The notes under the pieces: model-generated | Seen by the model: only the letters and a program-made list of their open reading frames with translations | Databases searched by the model: none | What the model was told of the DNA's origin: nothing | Part shown: positions 17,878 to 50,953 of the stretch, one piece after another | Layout: every line of letters starts with the position of its first letter | Position numbering within the stretch: the stretch's first letter is position 1 | Translations under genes and position numbers: made by a program | Source: an archaeon | Lineage (GTDB): Archaea; Nanobdellota; Nanobdellia; Pacearchaeales; GW2011-AR1 | DNA length: 64,000 nucleotides | Direction: 5' to 3' | NCBI GenBank assembly: GCA_024278335.1 | Contig: JAJRTJ010000001.1 | Location: 26,481-90,480 of the forward strand

Positions 17878-17878
17878 C

Positions 17879-25960: not shown

Positions 25961-26079
25961 TGGCCCCGATGGGATTTGAACCCACGACACCTGGATTGCT
26001 TTGAGACATGTCTCAATGCAGGTGAGACGAATGTCAAGCCTAAAAGTCCAGTGCTCTAACCAGGCTGAGCTACGGAGCC
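25961..26079 (-). tRNA. tRNA-Lys (anticodon UUU) with a ~44-nt intron at 37/38
   Basis: Hand fold: GGCTCCG/CGGGGCC+A, D arm GCTC-AGCCTGGTTA-GAGC, anticodon stem CTGGA/TCCAG, loop CTTTTA|intron|A. A BHB-like helix CTTT/AAAG is flanked by 3-nt bulges. T arm GTGGG-TTCAAAT-CCCAT. A TATA-like ATATAAATA lies ~-33..-25. Confidence 0.9.
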
Positions 26080-32088: not shown

Positions 32089-34533
32089 TTAAATCTTTTT
32101 CCTTCTCAATAAATTAGCATTTGTTACAACACTAATTGAAGATGTGGCCATAGCTATTTCAGCAATAACTGGATGTAAAATTCCAATTACTGCCAAAGGC
32201 ATAGCAATAATATTGTATGAAAACGCCCAGAATAAATTTTGTTTTATTTTAGAAAAAGTTGCCTTTGATAAGTTAATGGCTTTAACAACTCCTTCCAAAG
32301 ACCCTTTTGTTAAAATAATGTCTCCAGATTCAATTGCAATATCTGTCCCTGTGCCCATTGCTATTCCAACATTTGACTGCTTTAATGCAGGAGCATCATT
32401 AATCCCATCCCCGACAAAAGCAACAAATCCTTTTCTTTGCAGTTCTTCAACCTTTTTTGATTTTTCTCCAGGTAAAACATTTGAAACAACTTCATCAATA
32501 CCAACTTCTTTTGCAATTGCTTTTGCAGTTCGTTCATTATCTCCAGTAATCATGACGGTCTTGTATCCTTTTTCATTAAGTTTTGCTATTGCTGAAACAG
32601 AGTCTTCTTTCACAGAATCAGCAATGCCAATAATACCAATTGCTTTTCTATTTTCAGCAACAATTATTGTAGTATTTCCATTGTTTTCAAATTCTTCTAT
32701 TTTTTTGTTAAATTCCTTTAATTGAACTCCTCTTTCTTTCATTAACGCATTATTGCCAATAATAATTTCTTTTACCCCTATTTTTCCTTCCACCCCCCTG
32801 CCCCTTAAAATCCTGAAATTTTTTACTTTCTTGTATCTTTTTAAATTTGCTTTTTTAACAACTGCTTTTGACAGCGGATGCTCAGATAATTTTTCCAAAC
32901 TTCCTGCTATTTCTAAAAGATACTTTTCACTAACATTTGCTTTAATTTCTCTGACCTCTGGCTTTCCTTTTGTAATTGTTCCGGTCTTGTCAAAAATAAT
33001 TGTTTTAACATCTTTCATGGTTTGAATTGCCTCTCCTTTTCTGATTAAAATTCCGTTTTTTGCTCCAATTCCAGAGCCAACCATTAAGGCAGTAGGAGTG
33101 GCAAGTCCCAGAGCACAAGGGCAGGCAATAACAAGAACAGCAATTGAAGCAAATAGAGCAAGTGCAATTGTTCCTACATTAAGATTAATCCACGGCAAAA
33201 AGTCAAAAAACCCTGCAATACTCTGCATAAAATTTGGAAAAATAATCCATGCAAAAAAAGTTAAGATTGCAATTACAATGACTGCAGGAACAAAATAAGA
33301 AGTTATATTGTCGGCAAATTCTTGGATTGGAACTTTGCTTCCCTGAGCTTCTTCAACAAGCTTAATAATATTTGATAAAAAAGTATCTTTTCCTATTTTT
33401 GTTGCCTTGACATACAAAATCCCGTCTTGATTAATTGTAGCCCCAATAACTTTGTTATTTTTCTTTTTATCAACAGGCAGACTCTCTCCAGTAACCATTG
33501 ATTCATCAACTGCACTTTCTCCTCTAACAATAATTCCATCAGTAGGAATTTTTTCTCCGGGCTTTATAATCATAATGTCACCCACCCTAACTTCAGAAAT
33601 AGGAACTTCAATTTCCTCTTTATTCCTAATAATTACTGCTTTTTTTGCTCCCAACTCAAGAAGCTTTTTGATTTCTTGGCTTGCCTTTCCCCTTGCTAAT
33701 GCTTCAACATATCTTCCTGTTAAATGAAATCCCATAATCATGCTTGCAATAGCTGCATAATTTTCAATAGGGAGAAAGAACTTAATTATCCCGCTCAAAA
33801 AAGCAATAAAAGTTCCGAGAACAATTAAAAAATCCATGTTAAATGAGAAATACTTTGCTGACTTGATTCCAGAAACATAGGTATGCCATCCAAAAATAAA
33901 CAAAACCGGAATTGCAGCTAAGATAAATATTACATCAATATAAGGAATCTTAATTAAACCAAACATATCTACCAGCATTAAAATTGCAATTGGAAGTGCA
34001 AAAGCCCATGCACCATACATTCTTTTTTTTGCTTCATTCATCTCCTTTATTTCTGCATCTTCATGCTCTTCCCCCTCTTCTCCCAAAACTTTGTATCCTG
34101 CATCTTCAATTGCCTTTTCAATATCTTCTTTTTTGCCGCTATAAATAACTTTTGCTTTATGAGAATTAATATTTAATTCAACATTTTTAGTTCCTTTAAC
34201 AGTTTTAATTGCCTTTTCAACTGTCTTAGCACAATGAGGATTATCTAACCCCTGAACAATAAAAATTGTTTTTTTTGTTGAGTTTTCTCCTTCATCCTCT
34301 AAAGTAGCTTTGTAATCTCCAACATCTGAAACTGCCTTGATAATGTCTGAACTTTTTGCATCTCCTTCAACATAAAGCTTTTTCATTCCAAAATTTATTC
34401 TGGCACTTTCTACGCCCTTTACTTTTTTGACAAATTTTTCAATATTATTTGCACAGCTGACACAGGACATGCCTTCAATTTTATATCTTTTTTTATTTAC
34501 TCCCATCTTTATAATAGTTGAAAAGTTAATCAA
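32089..34533 (-). CDS. copA: Copper-translocating P1B-type ATPase with two N-terminal HMA domains
   Basis: GMSCVSCA (HMA 1), a second degenerate HMA, TGES, CPC (ACPCALGLATP), DKTGT and GDGINDAP. Confidence 0.9.
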   Translation of the reverse strand: MINFSTIIKMGVNKKRYKIEGMSCVSCANNIEKFVKKVKGVESARINFGMKKLYVEGDAKSSDIIKAVSDVGDYKATLEDEGENSTKKTIFIVQGLDNPHCAKTVEKAIKTVKGTKNVELNINSHKAKVIYSGKKEDIEKAIEDAGYKVLGEEGEEHEDAEIKEMNEAKKRMYGAWAFALPIAILMLVDMFGLIKIPYIDVIFILAAIPVLFIFGWHTYVSGIKSAKYFSFNMDFLIVLGTFIAFLSGIIKFFLPIENYAAIASMIMGFHLTGRYVEALARGKASQEIKKLLELGAKKAVIIRNKEEIEVPISEVRVGDIMIIKPGEKIPTDGIIVRGESAVDESMVTGESLPVDKKKNNKVIGATINQDGILYVKATKIGKDTFLSNIIKLVEEAQGSKVPIQEFADNITSYFVPAVIVIAILTFFAWIIFPNFMQSIAGFFDFLPWINLNVGTIALALFASIAVLVIACPCALGLATPTALMVGSGIGAKNGILIRKGEAIQTMKDVKTIIFDKTGTITKGKPEVREIKANVSEKYLLEIAGSLEKLSEHPLSKAVVKKANLKRYKKVKNFRILRGRGVEGKIGVKEIIIGNNALMKERGVQLKEFNKKIEEFENNGNTTIIVAENRKAIGIIGIADSVKEDSVSAIAKLNEKGYKTVMITGDNERTAKAIAKEVGIDEVVSNVLPGEKSKKVEELQRKGFVAFVGDGINDAPALKQSNVGIAMGTGTDIAIESGDIILTKGSLEGVVKAINLSKATFSKIKQNLFWAFSYNIIAMPLAVIGILHPVIAEIAMATSSISVVTNANLLRRKKI

Positions 34534-34559
34534 CTATTTAAATGCTTTGTTTTTTAATC

Positions 34560-35862: not shown

Positions 35863-36488
35863 TGTTTCCTTGCCTCAATTTTTTTAAATACATCAAAAAA
35901 AGCGAGATTCTTGTATTTATAATCTAATCCTGCTTTTTTAATATTTTCAAGTGTATCTCTATTTACATTAAAGCCAAATAAAAACCTTGTTAATGGATTG
36001 TGAATATGCTGAAGTATCTTAATTAAAAAATGTCTGCTCTTTGTATGTTCTAACATCAAGATTTTTCCATTTTTTTTAACAACCCGTTTCATTTCTTTTA
36101 ATACTTTGACAGGATATGGAACAGAGCACAAGACAAAAGTGCAGACAACATAATCAAAACTCTCGTCGTTAAACTTGAGATTTTGAGCATCCATTCCAAT
36201 TAATTTGATTTTTTTATTATTTAAAATTTTCAACTTTTCTTTTGCCTTTGCTATCATTTTTGCACTCAAATCAATTCCGATAACTTTTGCATTTTTTGGA
36301 TAGTATTTCAAATTTTTTCCTGTTCCTACTCCAATTTCCAGAACACTTCCCCTTAAATTTTTAAGAAGGTTTTTTCTCCATTTATCCAGAGTTCTTTTTT
36401 CAAAATCTTCTTCTATCCAGTCATAAAAATACGAAAATCTGTCATATCTTTTTTGAACTTTTTTTGTTTTTTTATCCAACATTTGCAA
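35859..36488 (-). CDS. Class I SAM-dependent methyltransferase (UbiE/type 11-like)
   Basis: VLEIGVGTGKNL motif I, VIGIDLS and DYVVCTFVL. Confidence 0.8.
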   Translation of the reverse strand: MQMLDKKTKKVQKRYDRFSYFYDWIEEDFEKRTLDKWRKNLLKNLRGSVLEIGVGTGKNLKYYPKNAKVIGIDLSAKMIAKAKEKLKILNNKKIKLIGMDAQNLKFNDESFDYVVCTFVLCSVPYPVKVLKEMKRVVKKNGKILMLEHTKSRHFLIKILQHIHNPLTRFLFGFNVNRDTLENIKKAGLDYKYKNLAFFDVFKKIEARKQ

Positions 36489-36858
36489 GAACCTCTTTTA
36501 ATTTATCTTCTACTCTTTCAGCAATTTCCTTTAATTTTGTATTCTCAACTGCTTCCATGGCGACTCTTGGGTTTATTACAGATACAAAAGTTTTTCCATT
36601 AGTTTGATAGATAATAACATTACATGGAAGAAGCAACCCAATATCTTTCTCTGCTTTTAATGCATTATAAGCAAATTCTGGATTGCACGCACCAAGTATA
36701 ATATAGTTTTCATAATTTATATCAAGCTTTTTCTTTAGGGTTTCTTTAACATTGATTCCTGTCAAGACCCCAAATCCTTGTTTTTTCAATTCATCTTTCA
36801 CTGATTCAACAGCTCCATTAAATTCTGAATTTATTTCTTTTTTATATCCGTATTTCAT
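36472..36858 (-). CDS. DUF302 domain protein
   Basis: ...GFGVLTGINVKETLKKKLD...YIILGACNP...LLPCNVIIY, typical of DUF302. Start moved to ATG 36858 (MKYGYKK), just after the upstream stop. Confidence 0.75.
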   Translation of the reverse strand: MKYGYKKEINSEFNGAVESVKDELKKQGFGVLTGINVKETLKKKLDINYENYIILGACNPEFAYNALKAEKDIGLLLPCNVIIYQTNGKTFVSVINPRVAMEAVENTKLKEIAERVEDKLKEVLANVG

Positions 36859-36859
36859 C

Positions 36860-37033
36860 TTATATCTTTTCAAGTATTTTTTTAATTGAATGTCTTGTTA
36901 TTCCAAGATCGCAGGTTTTATTCTTTTTGCACCCTCTCTCACACTCTTCAGCCCATTTTTTGTCTTCATATAAAAGTTTGCAACTTTCACAATAAAAATA
37001 TCTTCTACCTTGTGCTTCTACTTCTTTTACCAT
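36860..37033 (-). CDS. 57-aa Cys-rich miniprotein
   Basis: My translation is MVKEVEAQGRRYFYCESCKLLYEDKKWAEECERGCKKNKTCDLGITRHSIKKILEKI*; below the track cutoff. Confidence 0.45.
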   Translation of the reverse strand: MVKEVEAQGRRYFYCESCKLLYEDKKWAEECERGCKKNKTCDLGITRHSIKKILEKI

Positions 37034-37069: not shown

Positions 37070-37291
37070 TTATTCTTTTATTTTTTTAATCAGCCATAGG
37101 ACTAAAAGACCCAAAATAAGAACTATTAAAATTCCAATAAGCCATCCAAAAAACATTCCAATTGGACCGTATGAGCCATACATTGCGCCCATCATCCAGT
37201 CATGATGAGAATAGTCGTCTCCTCCAATGTTGGCAGATACGAAACTGATTAAAACTAACAAAGTCCCGGCAAAGCTCCATAGTTTTTTCAT
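37070..37291 (-). CDS. Small secreted/membrane His-Met-rich protein
   Basis: The start at ATG 37291 has an AGGAGG RBS. Sequence: MKKLWSFAGTLLVLISFVSA...DDYSHHDWMMGAMYG...C-terminal TM. Confidence 0.55.
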   Translation of the reverse strand: MKKLWSFAGTLLVLISFVSANIGGDDYSHHDWMMGAMYGSYGPIGMFFGWLIGILIVLILGLLVLWLIKKIKE

Positions 37292-37295: not shown

Positions 37296-37607
37296 TCAAA
37301 TTCCTCCTTTTGATTTTTTATTTTTGAAGTGTTTAATGGCGTCTTTAAGCACACACCAGCAAAAATTCCCAGACAAAGAATAATATTTCTCTCTCCCTTT
37401 TTTTTCATAATTAATTATATTTAAACTATCCAATAATTTTAATTGATGTGACACTGCAGAAAGGGTTATATTTTCTTTTAGGTCTTTGTGAATTTGGTTT
37501 ACTGTTTTATCTCCCTCTACCAATAATGAAATTATTTGAAGTCTTGTTTCATCTGCTAATGCAGAAAAAAATCCGGTTAATCTCTTGTTTAATTTTTTAC
37601 TTTTCAT
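37296..37607 (-). CDS. ArsR/SmtB-family metalloregulator
   Basis: LADETRLQIISLL...VNQIHKDLK...LSAVSHQLKLL wHTH. Confidence 0.85.
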   Translation of the reverse strand: MKSKKLNKRLTGFFSALADETRLQIISLLVEGDKTVNQIHKDLKENITLSAVSHQLKLLDSLNIINYEKKGREKYYSLSGNFCWCVLKDAIKHFKNKKSKGGI

Positions 37608-37645
37608 AAAATTTAATAGTTGAACAACTATTTAAATGTTTCTAT

Positions 37646-38143
37646 CTACTTTATCTCACATGTTTCACATTTATTTAGACTCTTTATTGTAAGATATGTT
37701 GCTATGATAAGAATAATTATTGATAAAACTCTTAACTCCATCCCTTTATACGGAAAATACATTAATGCTAAAGGCGACCCTATTAATCCAAAAAGAACTG
37801 CTCCGCAAGTAGGGCACCCTGCTCCAAATGCCCCCACAAGTGCTCCAACAAATCCAAAAAAGCCAAAAGAGTTTTTCCTTAATTTTTTGCTTGCTTCATA
37901 TTTATAGATAATAACACTTAGATAAATTCCAAATAAAGCAGAGATTATAGCAAAGCTAAGAAGGCTAAAATAAGTAAAATTATATCCTGACATCATAATA
38001 TAAATTTTCAGGCTGTTGTCAGCAATTTTGGCTACAGTCAGCTGATAAAAAATAATGAATGAAATTATTGCAGTAATCAAACTAATATAAACATACTTTT
38101 TGTTTTTGTAGATTCTTTTTAGTGTTTCAAACATTTTATTCAT
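37646..38143 (-). CDS. 4-TM membrane protein with intramembrane CPTC and C-terminal CETCE
   Basis: GALVGAFGAGCPTCGAVLFGLIGSP lies in a predicted TM segment; the sequence ends ...NKCETCEIK. Confidence 0.55.
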   Translation of the reverse strand: MNKMFETLKRIYKNKKYVYISLITAIISFIIFYQLTVAKIADNSLKIYIMMSGYNFTYFSLLSFAIISALFGIYLSVIIYKYEASKKLRKNSFGFFGFVGALVGAFGAGCPTCGAVLFGLIGSPLALMYFPYKGMELRVLSIIILIIATYLTIKSLNKCETCEIK

Positions 38144-38387
38144 AATATTTAAGGCAATACCAAGTTTCTTTATCGTGTCTTAGGTTTTTCTTCCATTCTT
38201 CTAAATCATTTTCGTATTCTGGAAGCCGGCAGTCTTCTGGGAGGTCTTTAGACCTATACCAAGCAAGAGCATCTTCTTGTTTTATATTCTTAGAATTTGA
38301 GGAAATAACAAGGGTAACAATTAAGCTTCCAGCTATTAAAAGCAAAAAAATTCCAATTGCAATTTTATCAAGTATTTTTCTTTTCAT
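38136..38387 (-). CDS. Small membrane-anchored protein, paralog A (PEDCRLPEYE...YCLKYY)
   Basis: 83 aa with an N-terminal TM. It shares a conserved block with the adjacent 38384..38656 ORF. Confidence 0.55.
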   Translation of the reverse strand: MKRKILDKIAIGIFLLLIAGSLIVTLVISSNSKNIKQEDALAWYRSKDLPEDCRLPEYENDLEEWKKNLRHDKETWYCLKYYE

Positions 38388-38656
38388 TTAGATTTTCCTG
38401 TATCTTGATAATATTTTAAACAATACAAGGTATTTTGGTGGTGGCTTAGATGCTCTTTCCAAGATTTGACATTTGTTTCATATTCAGGAAGCCGGCAGTC
38501 TTCTGGAATATTTTCTGCACGATATTTTTCTAATTCTGGATTTTTTACTTCAACCACACTTTTCCCGCTGATTTTTAAATATCCTGCAAACAAGCTTCCG
38601 ATTAATAAAAACACAAATATTCCTGCACTTGCATAAGTTATTTTTTTATTTTTCAT
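38384..38656 (-). CDS. Small membrane-anchored protein, paralog B (PEDCRLPEYE...YCLKYY)
   Basis: 90 aa with an N-terminal TM. Tandem paralog with a 4-nt ATGA overlap to the next gene. Confidence 0.55.
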   Translation of the reverse strand: MKNKKITYASAGIFVFLLIGSLFAGYLKISGKSVVEVKNPELEKYRAENIPEDCRLPEYETNVKSWKEHLSHHQNTLYCLKYYQDTGKSK

Positions 38657-39089
38657 TTTTTGATTTATGTTTTTTTACTTGATAATAAATAATTGCAATT
38701 CCAAGAGCATTTGATATTATCCCAAACCAGAGAAAATAAGGTATGTATTTTGTTAAAATCATTAATCCGGAAAATCCAACCAGTGCTCCTAAAAAAGGAA
38801 GTATGTTTATTAGATAGTGGCTGCAGCAGAGAATCATGCTGAATGTAGAAATTCCTCCAGAAGCAATAGTTGTTGAACAGCTAAGAGCATTTAAACTTTT
38901 AAAATAAACAAACAATCCCACCTGAAGGCCGAATCCTCCAATAAGAAGAATTAATAAAATAAAGTATCTTTTAATAATTTCAACAGCCATTAAAGGAAAC
39001 CCAAGCAAAGATAAAACAATTAAATTAACAAGTAAGACTCCGATTACTGCAAGGCCTCCCCATAACACTGCTTTTATTTTTAAATCCAT
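38646..39089 (-). CDS. 4-TM membrane protein with SCS and CCSHY motifs
   Basis: 147 aa, hydrophobic throughout, with ...NALSCSTTIASGG...SMILCCSHYLINILPF. Confidence 0.5.
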   Translation of the reverse strand: MDLKIKAVLWGGLAVIGVLLVNLIVLSLLGFPLMAVEIIKRYFILLILLIGGFGLQVGLFVYFKSLNALSCSTTIASGGISTFSMILCCSHYLINILPFLGALVGFSGLMILTKYIPYFLWFGIISNALGIAIIYYQVKKHKSKNEK

Positions 39090-40144
39090 TTTCCTTCTTG
39101 GTATTTTTGCTTAGTTGCCTTTAAGTTTCTAAATATAAATGCCCCATCATTTTCAATTGTTCCAATTTGATTGAGAAGTTTTTTCATTCCAAAATAATCA
39201 TTAATTTCTTTAGACAAAATAATTGTAGGTATTGAAGTAATATTATATTTTTTAATTAATAATCTTCCTGCAGAATCAGACAAGTCAATTTTCTCTTCAC
39301 TTCCAATATATACTCCCAATTGTTTAAATGCATTTCCTAGCTCTGCAGGATTAAAACAATCTTCACAGCTTTGGTTGATTAAATAAGTTGCTTTTACTTT
39401 TCCTTTAATCTCCTTTGTATTTAAATCAAAGTAAGGATAAACTTTATTTGTAAAAAGCAAATAGTCTTTTTTCTCTTCAATATTTCCACCAATTGCCTTT
39501 GTTATCCACCAATACTCTTTAAATTCTTTATCTGTAAGTAAAGCTGGAAGAGATTGTATATTATTTTCTTTAATTAATTTTTTTCCTTGTTCAGAGTTTG
39601 AATCCAAGAATAGGAGGTTCTCCTTTTTCATTCCTGCTTCTTCTAATTGTTTTATAAAAGAAAAATAACTCTCGCATTCACTGCATGAACTTTCTTGTAT
39701 TTCAATTAAGTTTACAAATCCTCTTTTCTCTTCAGTAAAAAGGTCTATATATGGAACCCCGCCTTCAAATAAAATATAATCTTTTTTAATTAAGACCTGG
39801 TTTTTTTCAAAAATTTTAAGACTTATCTTTTCAATATCTCTTGATTTAATTATTAATGCAGGAATCTTTCTTACATTGTATTTTTTTATTAATTCCTGTC
39901 CTTTTTTTGATTGGTAATCCACTTCTTGCGTGTCTTTAAAATAAATGTCTTGCTCTTTTATTAGCTTAGGAATTAATTCATTCATATCAAAACAATCTCC
40001 ACATCCAGTTAAAAGAATTATTTCTGCACTCTCTTGTTTTTCATAAAAAAATTGAAAACCAAGTGACAAAATTAAAATTCCTGTCATTACTGCAATAATT
40101 AAAGTCAATGCATCTTCGTCATAAATAATTTTTTTAAATTTCAT
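39080..40144 (-). CDS. Membrane-anchored protein with three tandem thioredoxin-like CxxC modules
   Basis: N-terminal TM, then three repeats: LLTGCGDCFD...KKYNVRKIPALII, ESSCSECESY...ENNIQSLPALLL and NQSCEDCFNP...KKYNITSIPTIIL. Confidence 0.6.
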   Translation of the reverse strand: MKFKKIIYDEDALTLIIAVMTGILILSLGFQFFYEKQESAEIILLTGCGDCFDMNELIPKLIKEQDIYFKDTQEVDYQSKKGQELIKKYNVRKIPALIIKSRDIEKISLKIFEKNQVLIKKDYILFEGGVPYIDLFTEEKRGFVNLIEIQESSCSECESYFSFIKQLEEAGMKKENLLFLDSNSEQGKKLIKENNIQSLPALLTDKEFKEYWWITKAIGGNIEEKKDYLLFTNKVYPYFDLNTKEIKGKVKATYLINQSCEDCFNPAELGNAFKQLGVYIGSEEKIDLSDSAGRLLIKKYNITSIPTIILSKEINDYFGMKKLLNQIGTIENDGAFIFRNLKATKQKYQEGKWI

Positions 40145-40626
40145 TCTTTACAGCAGTCTAATAATTTTTTAATTGATTCAGAGATTTTAGACAATTTTGA
40201 TTCTGCAATATTGCCTTTTTTTGATAGGCTGTTGCCTCCAACCCCATTTATTGTCCAGAACAGGCTATAAAGATTAAATGAGTCATAAAACATTTCTTCA
40301 GCTTCTTCTTTTTTTCCAGAATGCAGAGATTTTATTCCAACTTCAAACAATCTCATTGATGTTGCCAAAAGATGTTTGCTGATACACCATTTTTCACTTC
40401 CATCATCTTTTTTCACTATTTTTGCAAGAAGTTTTTTTCTAAGCTCTCTTGTTTGTTCTAAAAAATCAAGAAATTTTCTTTCATTTGTTTTTAAAAAACT
40501 AAATAAAAAATGCTCTTCTAAGGAAATAAGATTCATCAATCCAATGCTCAAGTCTTCCCCAATAGAAAGGTCTAATTTGTTTTCGTTTTTTATCTTGTCA
40601 ATAAATTGTTTTAATTCCTTTTTCAT
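40141..40626 (-). CDS. Hypothetical soluble helical protein
   Basis: 161 aa with no TM segment. Both ends overlap neighbouring genes by 4 nt. Confidence 0.45.
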   Translation of the reverse strand: MKKELKQFIDKIKNENKLDLSIGEDLSIGLMNLISLEEHFLFSFLKTNERKFLDFLEQTRELRKKLLAKIVKKDDGSEKWCISKHLLATSMRLFEVGIKSLHSGKKEEAEEMFYDSFNLYSLFWTINGVGGNSLSKKGNIAESKLSKISESIKKLLDCCKE

Positions 40627-41147
40627 TTAAAAATCACCTGCAAAATAATTCCTATAATTAAAAGAAGGGAAAAGGTAATTATAATTCCTTGATAAGGAAT
40701 ACCTTTTCCTCCACGTTTTTCTTTTATTTTTTTATTTAATGAAGGGGAGATTAATGTGATGATTCCTCCGAGAAAACTGCTTGCTAAGGAATAATTAAAA
40801 GCATATGTTGTTCCGTATTCCCCTAAAAAAGGAATGTAAAGAGGGCCAATTGCTCTAAAAATTGGTAATAAAGGAAGAATTGTTGAAAAAAACACTATGA
40901 AAATGATAATTGAATTTTGAAATGGGAAGTATTTCTTCTTTATTATTCTTGAAAACCACATTCCCATTGACATTGCAAATGCCCCAATAAACAAGCCTAT
41001 AACGACTTTGCTTACTCCAAGCCACGCGGCTCCTGCAGCCGCAGCACCTGCTCCAATTGTGCAAAGAGGGCAATGCGCGCTGACAAACTCTGCTAAAGAA
41101 ATAATTAATCCTCCAAATAAAAAACTAAGTTGAGCTTTTTTTATCAT
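40623..41147 (-). CDS. Polytopic membrane protein with N-terminal HCPLC motif
   Basis: ...AEFVSAHCPLCTIGAGAAAAGAAWLG... followed by further TM segments. Confidence 0.5.
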   Translation of the reverse strand: MIKKAQLSFLFGGLIISLAEFVSAHCPLCTIGAGAAAAGAAWLGVSKVVIGLFIGAFAMSMGMWFSRIIKKKYFPFQNSIIIFIVFFSTILPLLPIFRAIGPLYIPFLGEYGTTYAFNYSLASSFLGGIITLISPSLNKKIKEKRGGKGIPYQGIIITFSLLLIIGIILQVIFK

Positions 41148-41148
41148 C

Positions 41149-41628
41149 TTAAACTTGCATGAATTCCCAAGAAGAGCCGTCTTTATTTACTGCATAAACT
41201 GTAAACTTTCCATATTTTTGTCCAGGCATTCCCGGAGAGCCAGAAGGCATTCCAGGAAGAGCTATGCCTGCAATATCTGGCTTCTCTTTCAATAATTTTT
41301 CAACTGCTTCAAGTGGAACATGCCCTTCAACAAAATAATCTCCAATAATTGTTGTATGACAGCTTGTTAGTCCCGTAGGAACCCCGTATTTTTCCTTTAT
41401 TGAATTAATATCCTGAGAAACAATTATCTTTGCATTTGAATTTCCTTTGCTTTTAAAATAGCTCCCATATATTCCGCAACATCCACAGCTTGAGGATTTG
41501 TAAATTTCAATTTTTCCATCAAAATTTTTTATTTCAGCAAATTCATTTGCTTTTAAGTTTTGAAAAATTAAAAAGCCTCCTAAGAGAAGTAAAGCTAATC
41601 CTAAGAGGTAAATTTTTTTCTTTATCAT
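41149..41628 (-). CDS. CopG/DUF411-like metal-binding protein (signal-anchored)
   Basis: SSSCGCCGIY (CxCC), LTSCHTTIIGDYFVEGHVP and GIALPGMPSGSPGMPG match the DUF411 pattern. Confidence 0.75.
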   Translation of the reverse strand: MIKKKIYLLGLALLLLGGFLIFQNLKANEFAEIKNFDGKIEIYKSSSCGCCGIYGSYFKSKGNSNAKIIVSQDINSIKEKYGVPTGLTSCHTTIIGDYFVEGHVPLEAVEKLLKEKPDIAGIALPGMPSGSPGMPGQKYGKFTVYAVNKDGSSWEFMQV

Positions 41629-41653
41629 TTTAGAAATTAAAATTTAACAAAAT

Positions 41654-41926
41654 TTAACACCCGCCAACCATGCCGCCATAACTGCTTTGTGCAGCTTGAC
41701 TTGCGCTTTTAGCAGCAGAAATTGAAGAAGCACTTGAGCTTCCGTCTCCACTGAAAAAGAGGACATATAAGACTGCTATTGCCAAAAGTGCAATCACCCC
41801 CCACAAAATAAATGTTTTCAAATCTCCTTTCATTTTACCTCCTTTTGAATCAATTTCTCCAAATTGTTCCTGATGTTCTTCATTGTTTATTTTTTCTCTT
41901 TTTTCTCCACCACAGCATCCACTCAT
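41654..41926 (-). CDS. Single-TM protein with N-terminal MSGCCGG and C-terminal GGMVGGC
   Basis: Start placed at ATG 41926, 1 nt after the upstream stop. The sequence has a TM segment, a Ser/Ala-rich linker and ends ...SSYGGMVGGC*. Confidence 0.55.
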   Translation of the reverse strand: MSGCCGGEKREKINNEEHQEQFGEIDSKGGKMKGDLKTFILWGVIALLAIAVLYVLFFSGDGSSSASSISAAKSASQAAQSSYGGMVGGC

Positions 41927-41927
41927 T

Positions 41928-42563
41928 TTAACATCCTCCAACCATTCCTCCTCCAGAGGATCGGCCTCTTTCTATTCCTCTATACTTATTGCTTGCAAGA
42001 TTGATATAATTCACTTCTATTCCCTTTTCCTTTAAAGCACGCGCTTTTTGTTCATGTATTCCAGGAAAAAATAATACTTTCCATTTTCCCATTTCTGCCA
42101 AAATTTCTTCATCACTAAACTCCTCCCCATGATTTAAGATTAAATATTTTGCAAGTCCTCTCATAGCATAACTATGAGCGCATCCGCATGCAGGTCTGCC
42201 GTCACTGAATATAACTGATTTTGCTCCACAGCAATATTCACAAGAAATTTTGCTTGCAATTGAAATATATCTTTCTAAATCTGCCCCAGTCAAAGTCAAG
42301 GTTCTGTCTAAATTTGCCATAACTGAAATTGTTTCATCTGCTAAACGAGGGTTTGCAGCACTAACCCCGTCATAAGAAATTCCTAATTCTTGTCCATAAA
42401 TTTTTGGAGTTCCTGAAGGAATTATTTCTGAAGCAGAAACAGTTTGAATCCCTGTTGAAAAATCTTCTGTAGCACTTTTCCCAATTCCATACATCAAAAG
42501 CCCTACAAGGACAACTATTGTTGCCATTTGAATGAAGAAAGTTGTCTCTTTTTTGTTTTCCAT
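41928..42563 (-). CDS. Signal-anchored Cys-rich protein (PCYCGC-like) ending in GGGMVGGC
   Basis: ISCEYCCGAKSVIFSDGRPACGCAHSYAMRGL, with C-terminus ...RGRSSGGGMVGGC*. Confidence 0.55.
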   Translation of the reverse strand: MENKKETTFFIQMATIVVLVGLLMYGIGKSATEDFSTGIQTVSASEIIPSGTPKIYGQELGISYDGVSAANPRLADETISVMANLDRTLTLTGADLERYISIASKISCEYCCGAKSVIFSDGRPACGCAHSYAMRGLAKYLILNHGEEFSDEEILAEMGKWKVLFFPGIHEQKARALKEKGIEVNYINLASNKYRGIERGRSSGGGMVGGC

Positions 42564-42704: not shown

Positions 42705-43367
42705 ATGGTTCACTTCAATCCCCTTCCATCTTGGATTCTGAATTATACTTTATTCTCAGAAATAGCTTTTGCGATTATCACTTTTGCTGTTTGTTTGTAT
42801 TCCTTTAAAATTTACAAGCTTTCTGGAGAGAAAAAATCCCAGTTATTTGGATTTGCCTTTCTCTTTATTTCAATTAATTATTTTCTTCAATCTTTTCTTA
42901 CTCTTGCAGCTTTATTTAAGTTAGAGCAAAATATCTGCAGTTTAATGAAAATACAAGACTTGCAAATGCTTACTCTTTATGGAATTTATTCCCACCTTTT
43001 CTTCTTCATCATTGGTCTTATTACTCTTGTTTATATGACACTAAACATCAAAAGCATAAAAACATATATCCTTATTTTAGCAATTTCAATTGTTTCTATT
43101 TTATTTTCTTCAAATAAAATCTACATTTATTATGTCCTGGCATCAATTCTTTTGATTTACATATCTTTCTATTATCTAATGAATTATACAAAAAATAAGC
43201 AGATAAAAACCCTTCTTGTATTGATTGCATTTCTTTTTCTTTTATTTGGGAATATTCATTTTATTTTTTCAATTAATCATCAGGTCTATTACCTAATTGG
43301 GCATTTTTTAGAATTTATTGCTTATCTTTTAATCTTGTTAAATCTATTCTTGGTTTCTAGAAAATGA
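42705..43367 (+). CDS. Polytopic membrane protein, unknown function
   Basis: 220 aa with ~7 hydrophobic segments, divergent from the Cys-protein operon. Confidence 0.45.
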   Translation: MVHFNPLPSWILNYTLFSEIAFAIITFAVCLYSFKIYKLSGEKKSQLFGFAFLFISINYFLQSFLTLAALFKLEQNICSLMKIQDLQMLTLYGIYSHLFFFIIGLITLVYMTLNIKSIKTYILILAISIVSILFSSNKIYIYYVLASILLIYISFYYLMNYTKNKQIKTLLVLIAFLFLLFGNIHFIFSINHQVYYLIGHFLEFIAYLLILLNLFLVSRK

Positions 43368-43642
43368 GTAAAAAAAGAAGCAGATTGGAAGTAATACACG
43401 ATATTTTAGAAGCAATAAAAAGAAAAAATAAAATAATCAAACCAACTCACATAATGTATAAATCAAATCTTTCTCACAAAATGATGCAGTCTTATCTTAA
43501 AGAGCTTCTGGAGAAAGATTTGATTAAAGAAATAAATGATTCTGGAAAAGGCAAAACTTTTTCTCTGACTCAAAAGGGAATTGAATATCTTGACCAATAT
43601 AAAAAAATGATTGGATTTATGGATTCTTTTGGGTTGTATTAG
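43364..43642 (+). CDS. Small winged-helix DNA-binding protein
   Basis: 92 aa. EVIHDILEAI...THIMYKSNLSHKMMQSYLKELLEKDLIKE...SLTQKGIEYL resembles archaeal wHTH (HTH_45-like) proteins. Confidence 0.5.
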   Translation: MSKKRSRLEVIHDILEAIKRKNKIIKPTHIMYKSNLSHKMMQSYLKELLEKDLIKEINDSGKGKTFSLTQKGIEYLDQYKKMIGFMDSFGLY

Positions 43643-44815: not shown

Positions 44816-45970
44816 TTACCTTCCACAGCTAGGACTTCCACAACTACCCCCACATCCCCTCCCGCACCTTCCTCCACAGCTTCCTGAAGGTGCTACCTTT
44901 TTGTTTGCCTCTTCTATTTGCAAATCTGTAACCGATCCATTACTTGTAACAATAAATATTCCAGGAATCATTCCCATCCAACAACTCCATGAAATTATCC
45001 CTTCTTTATTTGGAGTAAATTTAATCACTTGCTTTCCTTTTTTTATATTAAATTTTAATCCTAATTTTGGGACTTGAATTGCATTATTACATCTGGTTAT
45101 TTCATTTCCATAAATTTTCCATTTTACTGGAACTCCTTTTTTCAAAACAAATCTGTCTGGAGTCCAGCCATTTTTGTCAACTTTCATTTCAATAACTTGA
45201 TAACCCCCTGAATCAACGATAATGTTTTGAGAAATTTCTTCTGCCCCTTTTATTTTTTCAATAATACTTGTAATATCATAACCCCCCCCACTTAAAACAA
45301 GCCCTCTGTTCAGCATAATCAATCCTAAAATTAAAACAAAAACTGCTGTAATTTTTAAAATTCTTTTAGTTGCTTTACGACTAATTATTGAGGTTAAACT
45401 GCCGAATCCAATCAAAACAGGAAGGGTTCCAATTCCAAATACCCCTAAAGATAAAAATCCCCCCAAAAAACTTCCTGTTCCAGCCGCATATAAATATAAT
45501 GCCTGCAAGGGTCCGCATGCAATAAACAATCCACTGAGTATTCCAGTCATAAAAGGGGCTTTGTAAAAACCCTTGGCATTGTTGGTTGTTTTTGAAGCCC
45601 ATTTGTCCAATAACTTTGGATTAAATTGAAAATGTCTGAAAAAGCTAATACCCAGTATACTCATAGCAAAAGCAATCATAAATAATCCTGCAAAGATGGC
45701 AACCCCTGCACGAAGTCCAACACTAAAAGCAAATGCTCCCCCAATCAACCCAAAAATCCCCCCAATAACAGAATAAGAAATAACCTTTGCACCCCCATAG
45801 ACAAAGTGCTGTTTTAATCCTTTATGCCCCTGCTGAGCATTCTTGGTTGTATATCCAATTACAAATCCCCCGCACATTGAGATGCAGTGAAAACCTGTTA
45901 AAAGACCTGCAAAAAATAACAGGAATAGGGAAGTTTTTTGAGAGTCAAGATTAAATTCAGGAAATTTTAT
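44816..45970 (-). CDS. DsbD_2/TauE-like membrane domain fused to a cupredoxin-like domain with a Cys/Gly-rich tail; the reading frame is open up to the TAA of the upstream HMA gene
   Basis: The motif GLLTGFHCISMCGG spans the track start codon (45877). The C-terminal domain has ...ITRCNNAI...WSCWMGMIPGIFIV (Cupredoxin_1-like). The tail is SGSCGGRCGRGCGGSCGSPSCGR. The 31 codons upstream (IKFPEFNLDSQKTSLFLLFFAGLLTGFHCIS) contain no ATG/GTG/TTG. Confidence 0.65.
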   Translation of the reverse strand: MKFPEFNLDSQKTSLFLLFFAGLLTGFHCISMCGGFVIGYTTKNAQQGHKGLKQHFVYGGAKVISYSVIGGIFGLIGGAFAFSVGLRAGVAIFAGLFMIAFAMSILGISFFRHFQFNPKLLDKWASKTTNNAKGFYKAPFMTGILSGLFIACGPLQALYLYAAGTGSFLGGFLSLGVFGIGTLPVLIGFGSLTSIISRKATKRILKITAVFVLILGLIMLNRGLVLSGGGYDITSIIEKIKGAEEISQNIIVDSGGYQVIEMKVDKNGWTPDRFVLKKGVPVKWKIYGNEITRCNNAIQVPKLGLKFNIKKGKQVIKFTPNKEGIISWSCWMGMIPGIFIVTSNGSVTDLQIEEANKKVAPSGSCGGRCGRGCGGSCGSPSCGR

Positions 45971-46270
45971 TTATCCAGTTATTTTGTAAAGAATAAATAA
46001 AAGCAATAAGACACTAATTCCAAAAATAATCCAAGCAATAATGTTTTTTTTGTTTATCTCCTTATTTTTTTTATTTTCTACTCCATAACCTTCATTTTTT
46101 ATAATTTGTTCAATTTCTTTTGCAGAGATTTTTTCAGGATAAAATTCAATTTCTGCTGTTTCTTTTGCAAAATTAATGGAAATGTTCTTAACCTTGTCTT
46201 TTAGCGCATCTTCAATTTTTTGTGCACAGGAATTGCAAGTCATTCCCTGAATCATAAAACTCTTTTTCAT
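45971..46270 (-). CDS. Heavy-metal-associated (HMA) domain protein with C-terminal TM
   Basis: MIQGMTCNSCAQKIEDAL (GMTCxxC) followed by the TM segment IIAWIIFGISVLLLLFILY. Confidence 0.8.
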   Translation of the reverse strand: MKKSFMIQGMTCNSCAQKIEDALKDKVKNISINFAKETAEIEFYPEKISAKEIEQIIKNEGYGVENKKNKEINKKNIIAWIIFGISVLLLLFILYKITG

Positions 46271-48190: not shown

Positions 48191-48522
48191 TTAAACAAAG
48201 TTAATAAAAAAGCAGTATTTTCTTTTGCCTTTAATGAATGAAGCGCATTTGCATTCATGTAAATAAATACTCCTGGCTTCATCTTAATTTCCTCTCCTTC
48301 TAATTTAAAAATTCCTTCTCCTTCTAAAACATAGACTGTTCCAGCTTTTGTAGAAGTATGGTCGCCAATTTCTTTTCCAGAAGCCATGCAAAACAAAGTA
48401 ACATCTACTTCATCATTTTTCAGAACCTCTTTTGATAAAATTCCCCCTTCGGGATATTCAATCATGTCTATTATTTGTCGATTCATTTTACTTAGATTTA
48501 CCTCCTTTTTGATTCTCTTCAT
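48187..48522 (-). CDS. Cupin domain protein
   Basis: 111 aa with GDHTS...GTVYVLEGEG...HSL, a cupin-like pattern. Confidence 0.55.
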   Translation of the reverse strand: MKRIKKEVNLSKMNRQIIDMIEYPEGGILSKEVLKNDEVDVTLFCMASGKEIGDHTSTKAGTVYVLEGEGIFKLEGEEIKMKPGVFIYMNANALHSLKAKENTAFLLTLFK

Positions 48523-48895
48523 AATTTTTAATTGCTTTTTTGAGAGCTTGAATTCCCAAGATAGAGCAGTGGATTTTTATTGGGGGCATTCCTCCAAGTT
48601 TTTTTACAATATCATTTTTTGAAATCTTTTTTGCCTTTGCTAAAGTTCTCCCTTTTGCTAATTCACAAACAACATCAGATGTAGCAATAGCAGCTCCGCA
48701 CCCAAAAGTCTGAAATCCAATATCTGAAATCTCGTGGTTTTTAACTTTAATTTCAAGATGCATAATGTCCCCGCATTTCATATTTCCAACTTCTCCAACT
48801 GCATCAGGTTTTTTTAATCTCTTCACAAATTTTGGATTTGTAAATCGTTTCATTAATTTTTTTGAATATAATGTGTTGGTTTTCATTTCTCCCAC
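48488..48895 (-). CDS. iscU: IscU/NifU-like Fe-S cluster scaffold
   Basis: GNMKCGD, FGCGAAIATS and HCSILG, giving three conserved Cys. Confidence 0.85.
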   Translation of the reverse strand: MGEMKTNTLYSKKLMKRFTNPKFVKRLKKPDAVGEVGNMKCGDIMHLEIKVKNHEISDIGFQTFGCGAAIATSDVVCELAKGRTLAKAKKISKNDIVKKLGGMPPIKIHCSILGIQALKKAIKNYEENQKGGKSK

Positions 48896-49293
48896 ACCTC
48901 TGAATCTCTTGCTCCTTTCTTTTTTTCTTTAAACTTAAATCCAAACTTTTTGTAAAGTTTTCTTGAAGGATAGTCTTTTTTTCGAACACCAACAAGTAGT
49001 ATTTTCTTTCCTGCAATCTTTTCCGTTTTTTTTAATAAATCCCAAGCAATGCCCTTTCTTTGATATTTAGGAAGAACATATAAATCACAAATGCAAAGAG
49101 AATTTTTTTCAGACAAGAACATTAAATAAGCAATAATTTTTCTTCTCTCTTCTACAACTAAAGTATTTTCTATAAGTTTAGAATATTGCTTCTCCCACTC
49201 AACAACACTTTTTGGAGACCCTCTAGAATAAAGCCCCCTAACTAATTTCATTGTCTCTTCCCTATCTTGCAATGTTGCATAGTGTATTTTCAT
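48883..49293 (-). CDS. GNAT family N-acetyltransferase
   Basis: YVLPKYQRKGIAWDLLKK (Q/RxxGxG/A acetyl-CoA motif). Confidence 0.75.
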   Translation of the reverse strand: MKIHYATLQDREETMKLVRGLYSRGSPKSVVEWEKQYSKLIENTLVVEERRKIIAYLMFLSEKNSLCICDLYVLPKYQRKGIAWDLLKKTEKIAGKKILLVGVRKKDYPSRKLYKKFGFKFKEKKKGARDSEVWEK

Positions 49294-49490
49294 TCTTTAT
49301 TCAACTCCTTAACAATCTTTTCAACTTCTTTTTTTGACAAACCATGCCCTAAACAACCTTGTTCAAGAGTTTCCTCTTGTGCCATTGGACAATAAACACA
49401 GCCCATACCAACCTCCATTAAAACTTCTATGCCTTTCTCCCCTTTTTCTTCAAGGATTTTCCCTATTTTTGTGTTCTTTGTTATTTTCAT
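49290..49490 (-). CDS. DUF1858 / redox-disulfide small protein
   Basis: 66 aa with GMGCVYCPMAQEETLEQG, typical of DUF1858 as I recall it. Confidence 0.65.
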   Translation of the reverse strand: MKITKNTKIGKILEEKGEKGIEVLMEVGMGCVYCPMAQEETLEQGCLGHGLSKKEVEKIVKELNKE

Positions 49491-49493
49491 TTT

Positions 49494-50651: not shown

Positions 50652-50953
50652 ATCTCACAAGATACGCATTTACTTCCGCAAAATGTTTGGGCATGGTTGT
50701 CAATTAATTTGAGAATAGGCAGAATTGTCTTTTTGTTTAAAGAATAGATTCTCTGCTTCCCTTTTTGTTCAGCTTCTACAATGTTGCATGATTTAAGAGA
50801 AGCCAATGCATGCGAAACTTTGCTTTGTTCTTCCTCAATTTTTTGTGAGAGTTCAGAAACACTTCTTGCTTTTTCTTTTAAACAAGAAATGATTTTTATC
50901 CTAAGAGGATTTGCAAGGTTGCTGAAAAAAATATGGTATGTTGATTTATACAT
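50642..50953 (-). CDS. ArsR-family wHTH regulator with C-terminal Cys cluster
   Basis: LANPLRIKIISCLKEKARSVSELSQ...SHALASLK; the tail is FCGSKCVSCEICV. Confidence 0.7.
   Translation of the reverse strand: MYKSTYHIFFSNLANPLRIKIISCLKEKARSVSELSQKIEEEQSKVSHALASLKSCNIVEAEQKGKQRIYSLNKKTILPILKLIDNHAQTFCGSKCVSCEICV

Follow-up and report, generated by a model that had tools for sequence, protein, structure and literature searches.

What is encoded by a run of ten closely packed genes whose products carry conserved cysteines and mostly resemble no described family, and do these genes work together? The question is raised by a stretch of 64,000 nucleotides (nt) from contig JAJRTJ010000001.1 of an archaeon of the Pacearchaeales (assembly GCA_024278335.1), hereafter the window, by which we mean the whole stretch. 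On its minus strand, ten open reading frames (ORFs) extend from position 42563 to position 37646, and we label them g01 to g10 in transcription order (Table 1). A preliminary description, made from the sequence alone, had proposed that they constitute an undescribed extracytoplasmic system for handling thiols or copper. Our analysis leads us to the view, held with slightly more confidence than doubt, that they belong to a modular cell-envelope system for copper or soft thiophilic metals, which would act alongside the ATPase CopA and the copper protein CopG in DPANN archaea and in bacteria of the Candidate Phyla Radiation (CPR).

A role in copper or soft-metal handling is the best supported one because of the company these genes keep: CopA, CopG, HMA and cupredoxin-like partners, together with regulators of the ArsR, CsoR, and CopY types, in two domains of life. 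The copper link suggested previously has gained support: these genes are syntenic with those of CopG and CopA in dozens of DPANN species, and the same families recur in CPR operons with CopY/BlaR1-like regulators, CsoR, YHS, and a Cu-ATPase. Across the set, invariant Cys, His, and Met residues are placed at the predicted cell surface, within the membrane, or on cytoplasmic termini, and gene fusions link members to one another (g07 to g08) or to a rhodanese (g04). Eight of the ten products (all but g03 and g06) have no Pfam or NCBIfam match, even at E ≤1, and profile searches of the PDB with g01, g04, g05, and g10 returned no relative.

Recurrence of the gene set in DPANN archaea

An alignment of g01 was used to scan genomes, and relatives were detected in at least 321 species-representative genomes. 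We fetched 80 loci (numbered L001 and so on) and annotated their ORFs with hidden Markov models (HMMs) of the window proteins; the frequencies given for DPANN archaea in Table 1 refer to the 41 loci whose sequence continues for at least 8 kb downstream of g01. The genes follow a recurrent order in these archaea: g01, one or two copies of g02, CopG (g03 in the window), g04, optionally g05 and g06, then g07, g08/g09, and optionally one or two copies of g10. Further downstream come, where present, genes for an ArsR regulator, g12, a DUF302 protein, and g13, followed by a small HMA or cupredoxin-like gene and CopA. A minimal version, made up of g01, g02, CopG, a protein of 145 amino acids (aa), and CopA, was found in L001 and L012. 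We also observed stand-alone cupredoxin-like ORFs of 120-160 aa in about 20 DPANN loci, just before the CopZ-like and CopA genes (for example, L060 6393-6767, L059 13088-13555, and L080 14645-15121), which are reminiscent of the pneumococcal CupA.

A reciprocal test was anchored on g05 in metagenome contigs, where at least 571 relatives of this protein were found; 80 loci were fetched, and the 36 with at least 8 kb were counted. The g04 gene lies directly before g05 in 28 of these 36 loci, and CopA is present in 20, g07 in 14, and g01 in 11. Since the pair of g04 and g05 also occurs without g01 and g02, in contigs with a G+C content of 0.40-0.59, the ten-gene run is a concatenation of modules: g01 with g02, CopG, g04 with g05, g07 with g08/g09, g10 (with ArsR), and g06. 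The notion of one ten-gene system therefore holds for the recurring modules g01+g02, CopG, g04+g05, and g07+g08, but not for a fixed and indivisible unit, as g10 is found in roughly a third of the loci and g06 in roughly a tenth.

The same families in bacterial operons

Three CPR loci (L083-L085) contain the g01, g02, g05, g06, g07, g10, and DUF411 families in one operon. The window HMMs match the ORFs of these operons with E-values of 1e-19 to 1e-81, except for the short g02 (5e-5 to 4e-3) and the DUF411 domain (2e-9 to 5e-14). Both g06 (E 1e-57 to 1e-81) and g10, the latter in two copies, are present in all three operons, and g05 was detected with an E-value of 1e-60 in L083 and L085 and not detected in L084. 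The first part of the bacterial order comprises a BlaI/CopY-type repressor and a BlaR1-type M56 protease, g01, a g02-like gene, g06, a DUF1573 gene, and a g10 paralogue; the second part comprises two DUF1573 proteins, g10, g07, a protein of 420-433 aa with an N-terminal DUF411 domain, and g05. The two regulators occur in all three loci, and the operons end in a YHS protein and a Cu-ATPase (L084), cupredoxin-like proteins (L084, L085), an HMA/DsbD_2/cupredoxin protein (L084), or the additional regulator CsoR (L083). The BlaR1-type protease that helps to head these operons (for example, L085 6449-16756) has a Cys-rich sensor tail. Besides the regulator pair, the bacterial components missing from the window are the DUF1573 Ig-like proteins (with STSCGCT and CGCCG...CCG) and a His-rich 143-aa protein (HWHPH...IHTHD).

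The DUF411 domain of the CPR proteins is a CxxC variant, and it is fused to a domain with six transmembrane (TM) segments carrying the motifs NPC and FPCSGG (L085 14751-16052, L083 14598-15884, and L084 12612-13874). This membrane domain gives a weak full-length match to SfLAP, of the LysE/DsbD clan (7.5e-6), and aligns with DsbD_2 over 162 columns; judged by these matches, the C-terminal half of the fusion is a CcdA/DsbD-like conduit. No description of such a DUF411::CcdA/DsbD-like fusion was found in the literature searched. The g05 gene directly follows the CopG::CcdA-like gene in CPR bacteria, and it is g04 that fills this slot, between CopG and g05, in DPANN archaea. That the fusion and g04 occupy the same slot is the strongest hint that the membrane link partly supplies reducing equivalents to the surface proteins. 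The multi-gene system is probably shared between archaea and bacteria by transfer.

These comparisons also bear on the possibility that there is no single system at all and that independent modules, each acting alone, have gathered beside CopA in a metal-resistance island. Such an origin would accommodate the many higher-GC contigs in which g04 and g05 are found without g01 and g02, the minimal loci L001 and L012, the variable presence of g06 and g10, and the fact that the island also contains a cation diffusion facilitator (CDF) transporter, a DUF302 protein, and a methyltransferase. We judge it decidedly improbable, given a strongly conserved order of genes that overlap at their starts and stops, the reappearance of the same seven families together in a single operon of a different domain of life, and the fusions that join members of the set.

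Layout of the ten-gene run

All ten minus-strand ORFs were found, by ORF calls and translations, at the positions listed in Table 1, which confirms the uninterrupted run with overlaps of 4-11 nt or gaps of at most 25 nt that had been described. Each of the Cys motifs quoted in that description is present in the translations. It had also singled out g05 as the one product devoid of such motifs, which proved incorrect, as g05 possesses a conserved C81 and the pair C158, C159. Spurious or rapidly decaying ORFs would be a poor explanation for the run, as the homologues of each family number from tens to thousands, with near-invariant Cys, His, or Met residues, and the synteny is present in other genomes. 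The nearest relatives of the window proteins come from metagenome-assembled genomes of Pacearchaeota, Woesearchaeota, and Nanoarchaeota, which identifies the host as a DPANN archaeon, and the G+C content of the window is about 31%.

The TATA-like element 5' of g01 is the probable promoter of the ten-gene unit, and the perfect palindrome located between the g10 stop and the ArsR start is a candidate operator for ArsR. A weaker copy of this palindrome, with three mismatches and marginal in comparison with shuffled sequences, lies at the start of CopA (34522-34537) and is a candidate operator site too; the region 5' of g01 was searched for the palindrome, and no copy was found there. As the palindrome precedes the ArsR gene, the genes from ArsR onward may form a separate transcription unit. 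Considering the tight overlaps and gaps, the TATA-like box, the 38-nt gap after g10, and the palindrome before ArsR, it is plausible that g01 to g10 are carried on one transcript and that ArsR to CopA form a second unit.

In what follows, topology (TM segments, signal peptides, and inside/outside orientation) was assigned with a script based on hydropathy and the positive-inside rule, and residue conservation is given as a fraction of 97 sequences for g01, 115 for g04, 67 for g07, 49 for g08/g09, and 55 for g10.

Table 1. Features of the ten-gene run and of the adjoining metal island (window coordinates), with the spacing to the next gene and the occurrence in the 41 DPANN loci.
Feature	Coordinates	Strand	Characteristics	Spacing to the next gene	DPANN loci
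HMA + DsbD_2 + cupredoxin-like gene	44816..46270	-	DsbD_2 3.9e-33; Cys-rich tail (SGSCGGRCGRGCGGSCGSPSCGR)		
TATA-like TTTATAA	42592..42598	-	~30 nt 5' of the g01 ATG; read by eye against the archaeal TATA consensus		
g01	41928..42563	-	Predicted N-terminal TM anchor (N-in), surface ectodomain, and C-terminal arm ...MVGGC-COOH	1 nt gap (14 nt overlap if g02 starts at the TTG at 41941)	
g02	41654..41926	-	Single predicted TM; predicted cytoplasmic N-terminus MSGCCGG, outer disordered Ser/Ala/Gln linker, end ...GGMVGGC-COOH like that of g01	25 nt gap	76%, directly after g01
g03 (CopG)	41149..41628	-	Predicted membrane-anchored or secreted CopG/DUF411; CxCC (C48, C50, C51), C90-H91, H103, M127, M134	1 nt gap	73%
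g04	40623..41147	-	~4 predicted TM; predicted signal peptide ending V/I-x-A, then (H)CPLC at the outer face	4 nt overlap	73%, after CopG
g05	40141..40626	-	Helical protein with no predicted signal or TM segment	4 nt overlap	39%
g06	39080..40144	-	Predicted N-terminal TM anchor; three tandem thioredoxin-fold modules of ~106 aa, each with CxxC and cis-Pro	10 nt overlap	10%
g07	38646..39089	-	4 predicted TM; M-x2-C-C-x-H (CCSHY) in TM3 after a Gly/Ser-rich segment; also SCS	11 nt overlap	66%
g08	38384..38656	-	Predicted TM-anchored small surface domain; C54 ... W-K-E-H-L-S-H-H ... C79	4 nt overlap	56% (g08/g09); g08 after g07 in most
g09	38136..38387	-	Tandem paralogue of g08 (hhalign probability 99.8%, E 6e-28)	8 nt overlap	56% (g08/g09)
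g10	37646..38143	-	4 predicted TM; CxxC (GCPTCG) mid-TM3, conserved MMSG in the first outer loop, predicted cytoplasmic C-terminal CxxC (CETCE)	38 nt gap (to the ArsR gene)	34%, one or two copies per locus
11-2-11 perfect palindrome	37612..37635		TTTAATAGTTG-nn-CAACTATTTAA; between the g10 stop and the ArsR start		
ArsR/SmtB-type regulator	37296..37607	-	PF01022 HTH_5 4.5e-09; after g10 in many loci		
g12	37070..37291	-	Small protein with predicted signal peptide; HH, MMGxMYGxYGxGM; C-terminal TM		
g13 (DUF7128)	36860-37033	-	Five invariant Cys; recurs across loci		
DUF302 protein	36472-36873	-	Recurs across loci		
CopA	32089..34533	-	P1B-1-type Cu(I) ATPase with two N-terminal HMA domains		68%, ≤10 kb downstream of g01

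Products that belong to known families

The resemblance of g03 to CopG/DUF411 noticed at first was borne out by its match to PF04214 (88.5 bits with a cut-off of 27, E 2.3e-25) and to the CopG of P. aeruginosa (PDB 6WIS), with which it aligns over 113 residues (40-152) at an E-value of 2.1e-21, pairing the segments CGCC, SCHT, EGHVP, and PGMPxGSPGM. C48, C50, and C51 are conserved at 0.89-0.98. As far as these alignments tell, g03 is a bona fide, full-length homologue of CopG. A published account of CopG (PMC7558416) describes a thioredoxin-like periplasmic protein that holds a tetranuclear Cu cluster through its CxCC motif, contributes to copper resistance under anaerobic conditions, and shows genetic linkage to copA and cus.

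The presence of three thioredoxin-like CxxC modules in g06 was confirmed both by Pfam, where module 1 matches Thioredoxin_3 (36.3 bits, cut-off 24.8) and Thioredoxin (30.5 bits, cut-off 23.5), and by internal alignment, where the modules show 27-30% mutual identity with the C, C, and P residues invariant. The protein scored below the cut-offs of all the NCBIfam subfamilies compared (PDO, MTH895/ArsE, TrxC, StoA, and DsbA-type), the best being TIGR02187 with 32.8 of the 185 bits required, and no relative was found among PDB sequences at E ≤0.01.

CopA, which closes the island, matches the Pfam families E1-E2_ATPase (9.5e-59), Hydrolase, and HMA (twice), and its translation contains ACPCALGLATP (CPC-x6-P), NLFWAFSYNIIAMP (N-x6-YN-x4-P), and MATSS (M-x2-SS), which are the signature motifs of P1B-1 Cu(I)/Ag(I) ATPases.

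Surface ectodomain of g01 and the MVGGC arms

The motifs of g01 are CEYCCG, ACGCAHS, and a terminal GGGMVGGC; the first two make up the cluster C108-x2-C111-C112 ... C126-x-C128-x-H130. Each of C108, C111, C112, C126, C128, H130, M207, and C211 is conserved at 0.97. The protein has more than 2,284 homologues (90%-identity clusters) at 55-70% identity, which amount to 294 representative clusters at 50% identity; there is no Pfam family for them, and the names listed are only 'hypothetical protein'. The AlphaFold model (predicted local distance difference test, pLDDT, 81.6) has an ectodomain above 90 and a low-confidence tail. In this model the ectodomain is mostly helical, with C108, C111, and C112 on a β-hairpin and C126, C128, and H130 at the N-terminus of a helix. 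A Foldseek comparison of the model with PDB folds gave no match (best E 3.5), and the g01 profile found only noise among PDB sequences.

Distant relatives of g01 were found in Parcubacteria, Buchananbacteria, Paceibacterota, and Jacksonbacteria, as well as in Woesearchaeota. They keep the pattern CE[YF]CC.A ... AC[GA]CAHS.AMRGL ... WK..[FY]FP, the tail LP.[MQ][VQ]GGC-COOH, and the domain layout. Membership of the PCYCGC family (PF13798) was considered for g01 and rejected, since g01 has no Pfam match at E ≤1 and none of ten distant relatives matches PF13798 at E ≤0.1.

The second MVGGC protein, g02, has no Pfam or NCBIfam match at E ≤1. Its N-terminal Cys pair (M-D/E/S-x-CC) is present in 26 of 126 g02-like ORFs, and throughout the fetched loci C-termini of the MVGGC type are restricted to g01 and g02-like ORFs.

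Membrane proteins, their soluble partner, and two rival functions

For g04, the topology script predicts two cytoplasmic K/R-rich loops with PFQ motifs. C26 and C29 are conserved at 0.94 and H25 at just 0.67; we found no Pfam match and no PDB sequence relative. When 20 homologues were scanned singly, rhodanese fusions were the sole addition: a C-terminal rhodanese (PF00581, 2.9e-10), predicted to face outward and with the active-site loop CRSGRMS, is present on 5 of 114 g04 homologues (in L022, L026, L041, L055, and L061).

The companion of g04, g05, has the invariant segments E37-E38-H39 and W80-C81-x-S-K-H85, in which H39, C81, and H85 are conserved at 1.0, and a C-terminal ...DCCKE whose CC pair (C158, C159) is conserved at 0.94. 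The lack of a predicted signal or TM segment makes a cytoplasmic location probable. We could assign g05 to no family, and its PDB matches were not meaningful; a relationship with tetratricopeptide repeat proteins was rejected because the match consisted of a 24-residue helix repeated over consensus repeats.

No Pfam or NCBIfam family was found for g07, g08, g09, or g10. In g07, M85, C88, C89, and H91 are conserved at 0.99. The suggestion that g08 and g09 (PEDCRLPEYE...YCLKYY) are tandem paralogues is upheld by the hhalign comparison in Table 1; C54, H69, H72, H73, and C79 are conserved at about 1.0 in the two. An extra TM segment joins g08 to the C-terminus of g07 in two ORFs. C110 and C113 of g10 are conserved at 1.0 and C162 at 0.76. 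There is no PDB sequence relative of g10, and Foldseek against the PDB gave nothing better than E ~1, a null result of little weight since the AlphaFold model (pLDDT 74) is poor, below 50, around the CxxC motif.

The g07 and g10 proteins are probably distant paralogues: they align over their full length in hhalign (E 1.7e-4, probability 49%), with the CC of one aligned to the CxxC of the other, and the g10 HMM matches the g07 ORFs of CPR bacteria at 2e-10. Beyond g08/g09 and this suggestive case, homology searches among the ten families returned only matches of single TM helices. It was also observed that g07 is fused in other genomes to a β-rich domain with a ...THS...GGHH... motif, which is encoded by its own gene just 5' of g07 in CPR bacteria (L085 13794-14255) and is N-terminal in a 406-aa relative of g01 (protein P0269).

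Two groups of known membrane proteins were tried for g04, g07, and g10. That they are cryptic DsbD, CcdA, DsbD_2, or SfLAP proteins was rejected at the available sensitivity (no hmmscan match at E ≤1, hhalign probabilities of at most 1.2%), and for DsbB, VKOR, MerT, MerC, and MerF there was no Pfam or NCBIfam match at E ≤1.

These results are relevant to a second explanation, in which the genes encode mainly a thiol-disulfide pathway analogous to Dsb, CcdA, or Scs: g10, g07, and g04 would move electrons across the membrane from a cytoplasmic donor (g05 or thioredoxin), g06, CopG, and g01 would use them to keep or correct the cysteines of envelope proteins, and copper would be just the stress. 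The three thioredoxin-fold CxxC modules of g06, the thioredoxin-like fold of CopG, the invariant intramembrane CxxC and the cytoplasmic CxxC of g10, the fusion of a CopG-like to a CcdA/DsbD-like domain in CPR bacteria, and the DsbD_2 protein just upstream in the window all speak for it, as does the role of Scs and DsbC in copper stress. We nevertheless consider it unlikely, if with some real chance of being right. The g04, g07, and g10 proteins show no relation to the DsbD, CcdA, DsbD_2, DsbB, and VKOR models; the vicinal CC of g07, g05, and g02 and the Met-Cys arms are typical metal ligands and not redox pairs; about 90% of the DPANN loci lack g06; and the regulators are metal sensors (ArsR, CsoR, and CopY-type).

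A third explanation is the acquisition of copper and its insertion into cuproproteins, analogous to CopC/CopD/YcnI, Sco, or PCuAC, with surface sites capturing scarce Cu and g07 and g10 importing it or delivering it to proteins of the cupredoxin type. If its signal peptide is cleaved, the mature g04 would begin with His, and CopC and YcnI use N-terminal His ligands, yet H25 is conserved at no more than the 0.67 given above. The layout of g10, with Met residues in an outer loop, a Cys pair within the membrane, and a Cys tail in the cytoplasm, resembles that of importers (Ctr1, MerT), cupredoxin-like ORFs recur, and L001 has a Cupredoxin_1/COX2 gene about 9 kb upstream. The tight linkage to CopA, which is an exporter, and to repressors whose usual signal is an excess of metal (ArsR, CsoR, and CopY-type), the character of CopG as a resistance protein, and the small number of cuproenzymes in DPANN and CPR organisms make acquisition highly improbable in our judgment.

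The surrounding metal island

The metal island extends from about 46270 to 32089. Its most upstream member, the HMA + DsbD_2 + cupredoxin-like gene, is split by a single in-frame TAA (45971-45973), and read-through restores GFHCISMCGG. Intact homologues of 480-496 aa are present in L014 and L034, and the same architecture closes the CPR operon of L084; the split could represent a pseudogene, a sequencing error, or a genuine division of the gene.

Between this gene and g01 there is a divergent pair (42705-43642, plus strand) that encodes a family-less polytopic membrane protein of 220 aa and a winged-helix protein of the HTH_45 family. The pair is also divergent beside g01 in L014 and L019 and lies on the same strand just 5' of g01 in L015; it is possible, from this arrangement, that it acts as a dedicated regulator.

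Downstream of g10 and ArsR, the Met-rich g12 (M32 and M33 conserved at 0.92-0.97) was found in 41% of loci, and the g13 family, with a DUF2933 match, also occurs in the CPR operon L083. Past the DUF302 gene, the same strand continues with an S-adenosylmethionine (SAM) methyltransferase, two small Cys proteins, a CDF transporter, and CopA. The two small proteins had been regarded as TRASH-like, an assignment that we could not sustain: one of them scores as DUF2116 (treble clef) and the other matches nothing.

The composition of this part of the island invites a fourth explanation, that the genes act on a soft metal other than copper or on a metalloid (Hg, Ag, Cd, or As), or that they traffic in sulfur or persulfide. 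Vicinal Cys pairs on flexible termini and TM helices are a hallmark of Hg(II) relays (MerP, MerT, MerC, and MerA), genes for a regulator of the ArsR family, a SAM methyltransferase, and a CDF transporter adjoin, and the rhodanese with CRSGRMS is fused to g04 in five homologues. We rank this as the least probable of the readings considered here: no MerA, MerB, MerP, ArsB, ArsC, or ArsM model was matched in the cluster, the pump bears the signature for Cu(I)/Ag(I), both CopG and CsoR are specific for copper, and the rhodanese fusions are rare, at the five of 114 already mentioned.

Other observations concern the wider surroundings. Genes for iron-sulfur (Fe-S) cluster assembly (NifU-like, cysteine desulfurase, and SufBCD) lie a few kb from the cluster, in the window at 48488-50651 and in L001 at 13960-18707, and relatives of the NifU-like protein and the cysteine desulfurase of the window are present in 19-29 fetched loci. 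As Fe-S clusters are damaged by copper, the proximity of the two sets of genes may be more than chance. A second ArsR-like protein, encoded upstream of the Fe-S genes (50642-50953, minus strand), has a Cys-rich C-terminus (CGSKCVSCEICV). Finally, a tRNA gene of 119 nt (25961-26079, minus strand) was detected by Rfam but not by ARAGORN; the presence of an intron is probable and agrees with an archaeal host.

Proposed function

If the genes do serve a cell-envelope system for copper or soft metals, a working order can be proposed, for which we infer the identity of the metal, the membrane topology, the direction of transfer, and each hand-off step. Cu(I), coming from the surroundings or pumped out by CopA, would reach the outer face of the membrane and be caught by the flexible tethered Met/Cys arms (...MVGGC-COOH) of g01 and g02, which might hand it to the Cys5-His site of g01 and to CopG. 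CopG would hold the copper in its Cys-bridged cluster and change its redox state, and the His/Cys surface domains of g08 and g09 and the Met-rich g12 could add binding capacity. The surface pool would be joined to the cytoplasm by g04 (outer HCPLC), g07 (CC-x-H in TM3), and g10 (TM3 and cytoplasmic CxxC), with g05 and its C-terminal CC as their putative cytoplasmic partner. What the three membrane proteins carry may be reducing equivalents, as in CcdA/DsbD, or Cu(I) itself; the vicinal CC in TM3 of g07, in the tail of g05, and at the N-terminus of g02 look more like metal ligands. Where present, g06 would keep the surface thiols reduced. The surface components conform to the extracytoplasmic location proposed in the preliminary description, but the system would not be purely extracytoplasmic, as g05 is predicted to be cytoplasmic and g02, g07, and g10 have Cys pairs on predicted cytoplasmic termini.

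It is important to consider several points that weigh against this proposal. The identity of the metal comes from the neighbours only, and the ArsR regulator, CDF transporter, DUF302 protein, and methyltransferase of the island are not copper-specific. The Cys5-His cluster of g01 could be a structural Zn site or a set of disulfides and not a Cu site, an alternative suggested by its placement on a β-hairpin and a helix N-terminus in the AlphaFold model. The vicinal CC of g07 suits a metal, and the CxxC of g10 suits a metal or redox chemistry; the Pro of the g10 CPxC is not invariant, with CAAC and CVAC variants in existence, and the g10 model is of poor quality precisely at this motif. Given the rarity of g06 in DPANN archaea and the absence of g10 from two thirds of the loci, the full relay cannot be obligatory. 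Finally, the topology is a crude hydropathy and positive-inside reading.

Comparison with described systems

The preliminary description could not map these genes onto the Dsb, Ccd/Ccm, Mer, or Cop systems, and our comparisons lead to the same result: the Dsb, Ccm, and Mer models fail and no characterised operon matches. With only two of the ten products matching any family, the set does not correspond to a characterised Cop, Pco, Cus, Scs, Mer, or Ccm operon, and no published description of the cluster was found in the literature searched. The closest counterparts share particular features with it. Like the CueR/Cus-linked copA-copG genes of Gram-negative bacteria, it has a true CopG, extracytoplasmic, and a P1B-1 Cu(I) ATPase in one gene run; unlike them, both are embedded here among at least six undescribed Cys-motif families, no multicopper oxidase or Cus/RND gene was seen in the annotated part of the window (~28-50 kb), and the host cells, archaea and CPR bacteria, are not enclosed by an outer membrane.

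The logic of the Scs (ScsABCD of Salmonella) and DsbD/CcdA pathways, in which membrane proteins with Cys pairs serve surface proteins with a thioredoxin fold and CxxC under copper stress, is also recognizable, including the fusion of a CopG-like to a CcdA/DsbD-like domain in CPR bacteria. In contrast with those pathways, g04, g07, and g10 are predicted to span the membrane about four times and bear no resemblance that we could detect to DsbD, CcdA, DsbD_2, DsbB, or VKOR, g06 lies below all the NCBIfam subfamily cut-offs, and g01, g02, g05, and g08 have no counterpart in Scs and Dsb. With the Hg(II) relay of mer (MerP to MerT/MerC/MerF to NmerA and the C-terminal CC of MerA) the set shares Cys pairs on termini, in TM helices, and on both faces of the membrane, a layout that suggests a ligand-exchange hand-off of a soft metal; nevertheless, there is no homology to the Mer families and no MerA reductase, and the context of regulators and pump is that of copper.

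The copY-cupA-copA operon of Streptococcus pneumoniae resembles the cluster in having a membrane-anchored surface Cu(I) chaperone (putative here) beside CopA and a CopY-type repressor; a BlaI/CopY-type gene is part of the CPR versions, and in many DPANN loci CopA is preceded by a small cupredoxin-like ORF. It differs in that g01 and g02 are not cupredoxins, the model of the g01 ectodomain has no PDB fold match, and there are many extra membrane components. Lastly, the PCYCGC lipoproteins of Firmicutes (PF13798) are likewise anchored extracytoplasmic proteins with a cluster of the C-x-x-C-C/G-C type, but the spacing of the motif in g01 is different and g01 has the MVGGC tail.

From these comparisons we lean, if only a little, towards an envelope defence against copper and thiol stress that would be built largely from new families. 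A bolder version, to which we give somewhat less than an even chance, is that DPANN and CPR organisms share an envelope machine with at least six new families that is a new system in its own right. Under this version, g01 would have a new ectodomain fold with a Cys5-His centre, and MVGGC 'swinging arms' would act in cis (g01) and in trans (g02); g07 and g10 would represent a new 4-TM family carrying Cu(I) or electrons, unrelated to CcdA/DsbD, DsbB/VKOR, Mer, and P-type transporters; and g04 and g05 would be a new pair coupling an outer-face HCxxC to a cytoplasmic protein with a CC tail.

Significance

Much of microbial diversity lies in the DPANN archaea and CPR bacteria, and most of their conserved genes have no assigned function. 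Our study delimits a recurrent and strongly conserved gene set in these organisms for which a concrete, testable function at the cell surface can be proposed, and its small soluble parts (the g01 ectodomain, the MVGGC peptides, g08, g05, and CopG) are suited to biochemistry. If the proposal is true, it would add several new metal-active or redox-active protein families and folds, and it would be a clear case of a multi-gene system shared by episymbiotic archaea and bacteria. To our knowledge, DPANN and CPR cells probably lack glutathione-type (low-molecular-weight thiol) buffers, multicopper oxidases, and an outer membrane; the proposed function, if true, would show how copper is coped with in such cells, and under the bolder version the machine would be the main copper and thiol defence of these ultra-small organisms.

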